64,000 nucleotides of DNA from Dictyostelium discoideum (lineage: Eukaryota): positions 1,536,001-1,600,000 of the forward strand of contig CM000152.2 in the NCBI GenBank assembly GCA_000004695.1. Direction: 5' to 3'. The first letter of the stretch is position 1, and every line of letters begins with the position of its first letter. A program made the translations under genes and the position numbers. The notes beneath the pieces are model-generated. The model saw only the letters and a list, made by a program, of their open reading frames with translations. It searched no databases and was not told where the DNA came from. This document shows positions 18,715 to 21,635 of the stretch, one piece after another.

Positions 18715-18962
18715 ATGGTTAATAATTTTAGCAGCAATGGAAGTGATTTTATAAATAATATCAACAACAACAACAATAACAACAGTAACAACAACAGTAA
18801 CAACAACAATTACAATTACAGTAATAAATTTAATTTAGAGGAAGAAAGAATACCAAATTTAAGAAGATCATGTTGTATTGTAAGAGTATCAGGAATTGAT
18901 CAAAGTAATGGAACAAATCCCAATTTACAATCTACTAGATCAAGATCATTTTCATATTCATC
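18715..18962 (+). CDS. Candidate 5-prime exon of the downstream peroxisomal protease gene (MVNNFSSNGSDFINNI...RRSCCIVRVSGIDQSNGTNPNLQSTRSRSFSYS).
   Basis: The protease ORF body at 19194.. has no ATG for its first 66 codons, although those codons already look like the start of a trypsin fold (NGKIIFSCSGFILDLEKGLIITSP). This upstream ORF ends at a GTAAAT donor (18963) in phase 2, which matches the TTTTACAG acceptor at 19219 (exon start 19220). The intron would be 257 nt, long but AT/T-rich. Confidence 0.35.
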
Positions 18963-19193
18963 GTAAATATTTCTTTTAATATCAAAAATATCTTTCACTA
19001 AATATATGTAACACACACACACTCCCAAAACTTTTTTTTTTTTTTCAGAATTTTTTATTTTCTTTTATTATCTATTCCTAAAAATTGTTTCACTTAAATT
19101 AATTTTTATTTTTCCCAAATTTTTATTTTCACAAAATATCTCCCCAAAAAAAAAATAAAAAAATAAAAAAATAAAAAAAAAAATCTAAATGTC

Positions 19194-21635
19194 TTGAAAA
19201 AAAAAAAAATATTTTACAGAAATGGAAAAATTATATTCAGTTGTAGTGGTTTTATCTTAGATTTAGAAAAAGGTTTAATTATTACATCACCAACTATATT
19301 TTTACCATTCATTCTTCAACAACAAAATGACAATAAAAGAAATATTAACAATAATAATAATAATAATAATAATAATAATAACAATAATCAAATGACAGAA
19401 TCTAATATAACAAAAAATACCAAAAATTCAATTGAAAAGATTTTATCATTAATTAATATAGATATAATTTTAGAGAGTGATATAATTAATATAAGAAATA
19501 ATGTAAATGAAAATAATAATAATAATGACTATAGTGATGATAAAATTTATGACCCAGTTAATTCATGGAGATCATGTAAATTTATAGATTACCTTAGTTG
19601 TAGTCAAAAAACAATAAATACCTTAAATCAATTAAAAAATCATTTCATACTATCAAACCAATCATCAGGATTCGAATCCTCATTTGGTTTAATAGTTTTA
19701 GAAATTAATGATAAATCATCATTAATTATTAATCAACAACAACAACAACAACGGCAACAAATTGAACATCAACAACATCAACATCAACAGCAACAGCAAA
19801 GAATTAATTCATCAGTTATAATTGGTAATAGTGTTGATGTGAGGAGTGGTAATAGTGTTTATGTTGTTGGTAGTCCATTCGGGTTTATATCACCAACCAT
19901 GTTTTTAAATTCAATTAGTAATGGTATAGTTTGTAATTGTATTCAATCATCATCATCATCTTCTTCATCATTGTTTTTAATTGATGCTAGATCATTACCA
20001 GGTAATGAAGGTAGTGGTGTATTTAATAAAGATGGATTGTTAATTGGATTCATTGCACCACCAATTAGATCAAAGAATGATAAATTACCATTCACACTAT
20101 CACCTGTATTACCAATTCATAGTTTTCTACCTAGAATTGAATCACAATTATCAATTTATCCTAAATATAGATTATCAAATAGTTTATCAGTGAGCTGTTT
20201 CGATCCAATTCAACAATCTGTAAATGATTGTCAAAATTCAATTGTATTAGTTCAATTTAAAAATTCATGGGGTTCTGGTGTATTAATAAGTGAATCTGGT
20301 TATATTTTAACAAATGCTCATTTAATTATACCTTCAATACCTTTAATTCAGCAACAAATTCAACAACAACAACAACAACAACAACAACAACAACAACAAC
20401 AACAACAACAACAACAACAACAACAAACGAATCAAACAAAACAAACAAAATCATCCCAACAACAACAGCAACAACAACAACAACAACAACAACCACAACC
20501 ATTCCCAATCGAATTGTATAAAGATAAAAAAGTAGATTTAAGAATAAGTTCAAATTCAATAATAAATAATAATCAATCATCATCATTACATCAATCATCA
20601 AATTCTTCATTTATTTGGTGTAAAGGTACTATTGAATATATTTCACATACTCATTTAGATATAGCGCTAATTAAAATCGATCAACATGATTTATCAATAT
20701 TATTAAACGATAATAATAATAATAATAATAATAATAATAATAATAATAATAATAATAATAATAATAATAATAATAATAATAATAATAATAATAATAATAA
20801 TAATAATAATAATAATAATAATAATAAAAATAATAATAATAATAATAATCAAAAAAAACATGAACCAATTAAATTTCAACATGTTATTTGTAATCCAATT
20901 TTAAATCCAAAATATGGAGAGAGTGTTTTTGTTTTAGGTTATCCTTTAATACCTCCAACTCAAAATCCACCAATTTCAGTTACAAAAGGTATAATTTCAA
21001 ATATAGTTTATGTTGATAATTGTGCAGTTTCTTATCAAACTACTGCTTCTGTTCATAGTGGTAATAGTGGTGGTGGTTTATTCGATTTGTATGTATTTAT
21101 ATTATTATTATTATTTTTTATTTTTTTCAATAATAACAACAACAACACATGTATTAATAGTTTATTATTATTATTATTATTATTATTATTAAAAATTTAA
21201 AGAAAAGGTAATTTTTTAGGTATTGTAACATGTAATGCAAAACAAAAGAATGGTTTAATTATTACAGAATTAAACTTTTCAATACCAGCAACATCATTAA
21301 TTCATTTCTTTCATTATGCAAACGGAACTGATGAAATGGGTTTGAATTTAATGAGATCAACTTCAACAGATAAATTTTTAAAAGCTTTATGGAAACTTCA
21401 AATTACACCACCTCCATTATCAAATACAAATAAAAATATCAATAATACTAACACCAATAATAATAACAATAATAATAATAATAATAATAATAATAATAAT
21501 AATAATAATAATAATAATAATAATATTTCAACTTCAACATCACCCATAGCAGGTAAAAAATACTCTGAATTTTTAACAAAAATGAATCAACAACAACAAC
21601 AAGATAACAATAATAAAATTCAAAGTAAATTATAA
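19194..21635 (+). CDS. Peroxisomal trypsin-like serine protease of the Deg15/Tysnd1 (glyoxysomal processing protease) type, with two tandem protease-like domains and a C-terminal PTS1 tripeptide SKL. Exons: 19220..21088 and 21203..21635, plus a probable upstream exon.
   Basis: The C-terminal domain carries the HtrA/Deg-type catalytic motifs GSGVLISESGYILTNAHLI (His) and TASVHSGNSGGGLFDL|KGNFLGIVTCN (Ser, GNSGG), split by an intron (GTATGT 21089 to AAAG 21202, phase 2). The N-terminal half repeats a degenerate version (GNSVYVVGSPFGF...LPGNEGSGVFNKDGLLIGFI). The protein ends ...NNKIQSKL-stop. SKL is the canonical PTS1. Poly-Q and poly-N inserts separate the domains. Confidence 0.75.

Follow-up and report, generated by a model that had tools for sequence, protein, structure and literature searches.

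Gene structure

The window analysed here, a stretch of 64,000 nucleotides of Dictyostelium discoideum DNA, carries on its forward strand a gene of three exons and two introns (Table 1). The gene starts at an ATG at 18715 with an in-frame TAA shortly upstream (18706-18708), and the frame of its first exon is an 83-codon open reading frame that reads into the GTAAAT at 18963. This exon encodes an Asn-rich N-terminus and then the first conserved strand of the N-terminal domain (LRRSCCIVRVSG...RSFSYS). Its peptide aligns to the N-termini of six dictyostelid orthologues, and the second exon aligns to the orthologues over its whole length. The frame of exon 2 belongs to a 668-codon open reading frame that opens after a stop near 19190, and a third open reading frame finishes with the SKL codons and the stop at 21624-21635.

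Both introns interrupt the reading frame in phase 2. The first, whose acceptor TTTTACAG has its last base at 19219, splits the codon of Ser83 (TC/A), and the second, with its donor GTATGT at 21089 and its acceptor AAAG reaching to 21202, splits that of Leu706 (TT/A). The spliced coding sequence is 2550 nt long, has no internal stops and translates into 849 aa, with TNAH at residues 447-450, GNSGG at residues 697-701 and SKL at the C-terminus. The introns are poorer in G+C (16% and 10%) than the exons (21-26%). The window as a whole has 22% G+C, its spacers are long homopolymers of A/T, and its coding regions are full of AAT and CAA repeats, features that mark a dictyostelid genome.

Table 1. 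Exons, introns and key codons of the gene, with positions in the window
Feature	Position	Strand	Description
Exon 1	18715..18962	+	Codons 1-82 and two bases of codon 83
Intron 1	18963..19219	+	257 nt; GTAAAT...TTTTACAG; phase 2; 16% G+C
Exon 2	19220..21088	+	Remainder of the N-terminal pseudo-protease domain, larger part of the catalytic domain; poly-N and poly-Q inserts
Intron 2	21089..21202	+	114 nt; GTATGT...TTTAAAG; phase 2; 10% G+C
Exon 3	21203..21635	+	Final strands of the catalytic domain, conserved C-terminal helices (FLKALWKLQI), poly-N tract, SKL and stop
PTS1 tripeptide SKL	21624-21632	+	Stop codon at 21633-21635; letters AGT AAA TTA TAA
Codon of catalytic His450 (TNAH)	20319..20321	+	Same residue in all 43 aligned sequences, bacterial HtrA proteins among them
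Codon of catalytic Asp563 (HLDIAL)	20658..20660	+	At least 90% conserved (13- and 43-sequence alignments); matches the HtrA Asp column
Codon of catalytic Ser699 (GNSGG)	21066..21068	+	Invariant in the alignments; pairs with GNSGG/GNAGG of solved Deg5 and DegP
Codon of Glu346 (GNEGS)	20007..20009	+	Former catalytic-Ser site of the dead N-terminal domain; hhalign register

We read this locus as a three-exon dictyostelid gene that is almost certainly the D. discoideum orthologue of DEG15/TYSND1, with an 849-aa product predicted to be a serine protease of the peroxisomal matrix, and we give this reading a probability of roughly 0.88.

Support for the splice junctions and the start

To place the junctions we enumerated all GT..AG pairs with an open frame across each gap and compared the resulting junction peptides with those of the orthologues. 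Six orthologues came from the homology search, among them those of Polysphondylium violaceum, Tieghemostelium lacteum, Heterostelium album and Acytostelium subglobosum. For the first gap, 18962/19220 is the only one of all in-frame GT..AG pairs that gives RSFSYSS/NGKIIFSCSGF; for the second, GNSGGGLFDL/KGNFLGIVTCN is given by 21088/21203 and by no other pair. Both peptides align without a gap to all six dictyostelid orthologues, the second also to Deg5, and alignments to the sequences of solved Deg5, DegP and DegS span the intron 2 junction as well. The alternative splice pairs were rejected, as each deletes or inserts conserved residues.

We then mapped the exons of the P. violaceum and T. 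lacteum genes onto their genomic loci. Intron 1 has the identical position and phase in both genes. Intron 2 has the identical position and phase (2) in P. violaceum, while the second intron of T. lacteum sits elsewhere. The possibility of further introns hidden in the poly-N and poly-Q tracts was rejected: no GT occurs in these tracts, which rules out canonical introns there and leaves them as coding sequence. By these sequence comparisons, the three-exon model is well supported, far above chance.

A previous sequence-only reading of this DNA had proposed that an upstream exon at 18715..18962 is joined in phase 2 to 19220, and the junction turned out to be unique and gapless, with an intron that is conserved in two species. 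It had also proposed that the second intron splits the Ser motif of the active domain. The intron (21089..21202) was borne out, but the split was not: GNSGG lies wholly within exon 2, and the intron, six codons past Ser699, splits the next strand. Its count of 66 codons before the first ATG of the long open reading frame is correct when made from the TTG at 19194; counted from the preceding stop, the distance is 75 codons.

That ATG offers a different start. If the gene began there, at Met141 (19392), it would lack exon 1 and encode 709 aa, and the open reading frame at 18715-18962 would be unrelated to it. The long open reading frame is indeed what a single-ORF gene caller would find, and such a caller would choose the ATG of Met141. 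However, a start at Met141 would drop residues 84-140, including FSCSGFI, which is invariant in seven dictyostelid sequences and largely kept across the family, and it is because these dictyostelid-invariant residues would be lost that we regard the shorter protein as very unlikely. The other evidence also opposes it: the exon 1 product (LRRSCCIVRV...RSFSYS) matches the N-termini of the orthologues, a phase-2 intron is kept at the exact site of intron 1 in the two other species, and the structure model places the exon 1 strand with confidence inside the N-terminal domain. The sequence-only reading also guessed that any simple annotation would probably miss the first exon, which does not hold in general: the deposited models of four orthologues contain a homologous first exon. 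The one deposited for Cavenderia fasciculata has clearly been cut short and has no PTS1. Neither the exact 849-aa sequence nor the exact 709-aa sequence had a match in the protein collection, and there was no protein from Dictyostelium sensu stricto among the matches of the homology search.

The catalytic C-terminal domain

With the three-exon model, the C-terminal half of the protein is an active HtrA-type protease domain with an intact triad, H450-D563-S699. A Pfam scan assigned it to Trypsin_2 (6e-27), in agreement with the HtrA-type TNAH and GNSGG motifs that the first reading had noticed there together with the terminal SKL. The same scan of the 849-aa protein found no PDZ families at E <= 1. 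We built family alignments from 13 members and from a broader set of 43 sequences that includes bacterial HtrA proteins. H450 and S699 are invariant in these alignments of up to 43 sequences, and D563 is present in at least 90%.

An AlphaFold model computed from the 43-sequence alignment has a mean pLDDT of 74.5; an earlier model from 7 sequences had a pLDDT of 42 and was discarded. In the model, the protease domain is followed by short helices and then by a low-complexity tail. When we compared the model with the PDB using Foldseek, the best matches were the protease domains of DegS (E = 2.6e-11, target TM 0.77-0.82). Two inserts, poly-Q between His and Asp and poly-N between Asp and Ser, form surface loops of the kind that is typical in Dictyostelium proteins. 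Matches set aside because they lie on low-complexity tracts were those to EPL1, Androgen_recep and Rxt3 in Pfam, which are weak and score under the Pfam cut-offs, and one to Nup88 in the PDB.

A degenerate protease fold in the N-terminal half

Another feature of the protein emerges when its two halves are compared with each other. Using hhalign, residues 46-395 match residues 415-775 with a probability of 99.2% (E = 1.7e-19) over 198 columns, from which it follows that the N-terminal half is a duplicated protease fold. The suggestion that there are two such folds, the first of them degenerate, thus holds. In the hhalign register, Ser or Pro occupies the site of the catalytic His, the Asp is absent, and Glu346 (GNEGS) stands at the site of the Ser. 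Because His is replaced by Ser/Pro, there is no Asp and Ser is replaced by Glu346, we conclude that the N-terminal half is catalytically dead.

The region around the old Ser site is conserved. E346 is invariant in 13 of the 13 aligned family members, and the block that surrounds it, SPFG...DARCLPGxEG, is kept across Amoebozoa, plants and algae, green algae included. The strand encoded by exon 1 (residues 53-61) is part of this domain in the AlphaFold model, with a pLDDT of about 93. Within the DARCLPG motif, the D. discoideum protein has Ser (DARS) where nearly all relatives have Cys.

The dead domain probably serves in oligomerisation or in substrate handling. A structural or substrate-handling role is suggested by Arabidopsis DEG15, in which deletion of the N-terminal region abolishes processing (PMC3830196). 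A more specific idea, which we consider doubtful, is that the domain could have the specific task of docking the PTS2 presequence or the PEX7-cargo complex; it is prompted by the invariant E346 at the old Ser site, inside a DARCLPGxEG block that is kept from Amoebozoa to plants. If the docking idea were true, Dictyostelium, a haploid and genetically tractable organism in which the PTS2 pathway works, would allow a clean approach to the question of why PTS2 signals get removed. The purpose of their removal is called still open in the DEG15 literature (PMC3830196).

Assignment to the DEG15/TYSND1 family

To place the protein among the HtrA-type proteases we relied on profile searches. In a word-indexed search, a profile of the dictyostelid sequences matched the plant 'glyoxysomal processing protease' at 1e-50 and bacterial HtrA/DegP at 1e-6 or worse; when the profile was broadened, the best score of a generic HtrA protein was 1e-13. 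The word-indexed search did not reach animal TYSND1, which was found by means of an exhaustive HMMER search, against 1.84 billion representatives of a 50%-identity cluster library, together with the names of the clusters. This search matched plant GPP at 7e-175 and gave four animal matches at 1e-72 to 1e-82, which in their sources are called 'peroxisomal leader peptide-processing protease', as TYSND1 is. UniRef gives that same name to the orthologues of T. lacteum and H. album. At E < 1e-30, the family comprises 472 cluster representatives in the 50%-identity library.

The C-termini of the relatives provide a separate comparison. A PTS1 is a tripeptide at the C-terminus, such as SKL, that targets a protein to peroxisomes. 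A strict PTS1 terminus, defined as [SAC][KRH][LM], is found in 115 of the 150 best relatives and a relaxed one in 134 (77-89%), while none of 50 HtrA-type controls drawn from the earlier search has one.

The protein shares with the DEG15/GPP/TYSND1 family an HtrA-type domain with its triad, a C-terminal PTS1, the lack of a PDZ domain, a long N-terminal region and proximity in the profile searches. It does not have the arrangement of the classical HtrA/DegP proteins, which form trimer-based oligomers and carry at least one PDZ domain behind the protease domain; instead, it has two protease-fold domains and no PDZ. Could it nevertheless be a non-peroxisomal HtrA/Deg protease, whether mitochondrial, secreted or cytosolic, with an SKL that is coincidental? 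The nearest solved structures are those of bacterial DegS, DegP and DegQ and of plastid Deg proteases, as might be expected of such an enzyme. Against this stand the absence of the PDZ domain, the profile scores (about 1e-175 for DEG15/GPP, 1e-72 to 1e-82 for proteins that bear the TYSND1 name, and much weaker values for generic HtrA) and a PTS1 that is frequent in the family and absent from the controls, so that we consider a coincidental SKL extremely improbable.

The profile scores support placement in the DEG15/TYSND1 clade and not in another HtrA clade. In other words, the Deg15/Tysnd1-like membership proposed by the sequence-only reading stands, with 7e-175 for plant GPP and 1e-72 to 1e-82 for animal proteins named as TYSND1. 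That reading had named a profile placement in a non-peroxisomal HtrA clade as a result that would tell against it; given the profile scores and the PTS1 counts (115/150 against 0/50), no such placement was observed.

The literature already covers the family, its peroxisomal targeting and its Dictyostelium member. Table S2A of Dolze et al. 2013 (PMC3830196) has the entry 'Didi_DEG15, Dictyostelium discoideum, XP_641938, SKL', without PDZ, so this is a known family member, catalogued since 2013, and not a discovery. From the SKL end, the dictyostelid DNA and a family that is reportedly single-copy in most plants, we infer that XP_641938 is probably the same protein as the one encoded here. The value of our analysis lies mainly in correct annotation, since it provides the dictyostelid DEG15/TYSND1 orthologue with a three-exon model that is well supported; it implies no new biology. 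It also documents the N-terminal half of the DEG15/TYSND1 family, which is widespread, as a duplicated and inactivated protease fold.

Probable function

If it behaves like the characterised enzymes of plants and mouse, the protein would be carried in folded form into peroxisomes by PEX5 via its SKL. Once in the matrix, as is the case for those enzymes, it would be expected to cut the N-terminal PTS2 presequence off enzymes imported by PEX7, and perhaps to process some PTS1 beta-oxidation enzymes as well. The substrates of mouse Tysnd1 include both kinds: Acaa1, Phyh and Agps are PTS2 proteins, while Acox1, Hsd17b4 and ScpX have a PTS1 (PMC3573110). The peroxisomes of D. discoideum import both GFP-SKL and PTS2 reporters (PMC3465988). 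Our literature search found no functional study of a Dictyostelium DEG15 enzyme and no demonstration of PTS2 cleavage in any amoebozoan.

One alternative accepts the peroxisomal location but not the processing of PTS2 proteins. Specifically, the enzyme might be a general quality-control or degradative protease of the matrix, or might process PTS1 enzymes only. According to Helm et al. 2007, as reported in PMC3830196, the plant enzyme has a dual specificity, and only its dimer is the specific PTS2-processing form; the calmodulin-binding N-terminus that drives dimerisation in plants is absent from the slime-mould orthologues (PMC3830196). The cleavage of PTS1 enzymes by mouse Tysnd1 (PMC3573110) also leaves room for such a role. 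However, every characterised member of the clade, from watermelon, Arabidopsis and mouse, cleaves PTS2 presequences (PMC3830196, PMC3573110), the PTS2 pathway is functional in D. discoideum (PMC3465988), and the entire two-domain architecture that is required for processing in Arabidopsis is kept. We therefore judge a peroxisomal protease that does no PTS2 processing to be unlikely, and expect the D. discoideum enzyme to remove PTS2 presequences as its plant and mouse counterparts do.

Comparison with known systems

Orthologues of DEG15 are described from animals and cellular slime moulds, all with a non-cleaved PTS1 and a His-Asp-Ser triad (PMC3830196), and the D. discoideum protein is orthologous to both plant DEG15 and animal TYSND1. 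Plant DEG15/GPP, for example AtDEG15 (NP_174153), likewise consists of a non-catalytic N-terminal region followed by a C-proximal HtrA-type domain with the triad, and has no PDZ and a PTS1. The similarity to plant GPP is collinear over both domains (two BLASTP segments at 4e-23 and 1e-19; profile 7e-175), although the conserved blocks are only about 26-36% identical to the D. discoideum protein. The DEG15 of higher plants has a calmodulin-binding motif in its first 25 residues, which is required for dimerisation dependent on Ca2+ and CML3 and is reportedly absent in slime moulds (PMC3830196). Where higher plants have this amphiphilic CML3-binding helix, within the first 20-25 residues, the N-terminus of the D. 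discoideum protein is an Asn-rich segment of low confidence in the AlphaFold model. An enlarged His-Asp loop may be common to plants and slime moulds (PMC3830196); unlike in plant DEG15, the loop in D. discoideum is filled by a poly-Q tract.

Animal TYSND1 has in common with the D. discoideum protein the two-domain layout, the SKL and the family, and the removal of PTS2 presequences would be expected to be shared as well. The proteins of this name matched by the profile at 1e-72 to 1e-82 come from invertebrates. Animal TYSND1 is shorter, at about 560-570 aa, and has neither the long His-Asp loop nor low-complexity inserts. The substrate range of TYSND1 (Acox1, Hsd17b4, ScpX) and its self-cleavage are established for mammals only.

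Bacterial and organellar HtrA proteins (DegS, DegP, DegQ, plant Deg1/5/8, HTRA1/2) resemble the D. discoideum protein in the catalytic domain, with its common chymotrypsin-like fold, TNAH and GNSGG. They differ in that all but Deg5 have PDZ domains, and in having one protease domain only and lacking a PTS1, and the similarity to them is restricted to the catalytic domain, at E >= 1e-13.

The closest counterparts are the orthologues of other dictyostelids, including CYY_003116 of P. violaceum, DLAC_03266 of T. lacteum, PPL_04362 of H. album and that of A. subglobosum. These are 46-59% identical to the D. discoideum protein over the aligned columns, agree with it in their domains and triad, and end in SKL or AKL. 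The D. discoideum protein has DARS where they have DARC, and it is about 190 residues longer, a difference that is due entirely to its poly-N, poly-Q and poly-S inserts.

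Intron structure and annotation of the protease gene

The first intron of the DEG15/TYSND1-like protease gene, a phase-2 intron located just before the residues NGK, is common to three dictyostelid species, as judged from the loci encoding the P. violaceum and T. lacteum orthologues (L001, 3001-5178, and L002, 3001-5052). P. violaceum also has the second intron in common with the window gene. In T. lacteum, this second intron is replaced by a phase-1 intron adjoining the catalytic-histidine motif (NGYLLTNAH), an example of intron turnover.

The deposited model of the Cavenderia fasciculata orthologue (DFA_04054, 532 aa) is missing much of the N-terminal domain, and does not end in a PTS1. 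This model is probably a gene mis-prediction; thus, annotation errors do happen in the DEG15/TYSND1 family.

Sequence features of the predicted protein

Two homopolymer tracts interrupt the catalytic domain, one of glutamine and one of asparagine (see table), and in the predicted structure they form part low-confidence loop and part helix. The orthologues carry inserts at the same two sites, but these are much shorter than the tracts of the window protein. In the degenerate N-terminal copy of the protease fold, a serine takes the place of the conserved cysteine: residues 340-347 lie within DARSLPGNEG, and almost every other family member in the alignment has DARCLPGxEG.

Features of the protease gene and other features of the window
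Feature	Position	Strand	Details
Ankyrin-repeat ORF	12959-13561	+	
GLFG/FG-repeat-rich ORFs	15325-17266	+	On either side of a helical middle segment
Segment with Cys-to-Ser replacement	19989-20012	+	Degenerate N-terminal domain
Gln tract	20340-20500	+	~45 Gln; His-Asp loop
Asn tract	20690-20860	+	~55 Asn; Asp-Ser loop
ORF, 1234 aa	32998-36702	-	Reverse-transcriptase domain (RVT_1, 4.8e-33)
ORF, 417 aa	36702-37955	-	No Pfam match
tRNA-Cys(GCA)	38078-38154	-	
Pan3 pseudokinase domain	43626-44474	-	2e-61
ORF, 2853 codons	48405-56966	+	N, middle and C domains of UTP20, a component of the small-subunit processome

Neighboring genes

The FG-repeat-rich ORFs lie immediately 5' of the protease gene, and are probably part of a multi-exon FG-nucleoporin gene. 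On the minus strand, two abutting ORFs, the 417-aa ORF being the first, start approximately 120 nt downstream of the tRNA-Cys(GCA) gene and in the same orientation. The ensemble (32998-38154), which lends support to the window being of dictyostelid origin, looks like a tRNA-gene-targeted non-LTR retroelement in a TRE3-like position, a kind of element known from Dictyostelium.
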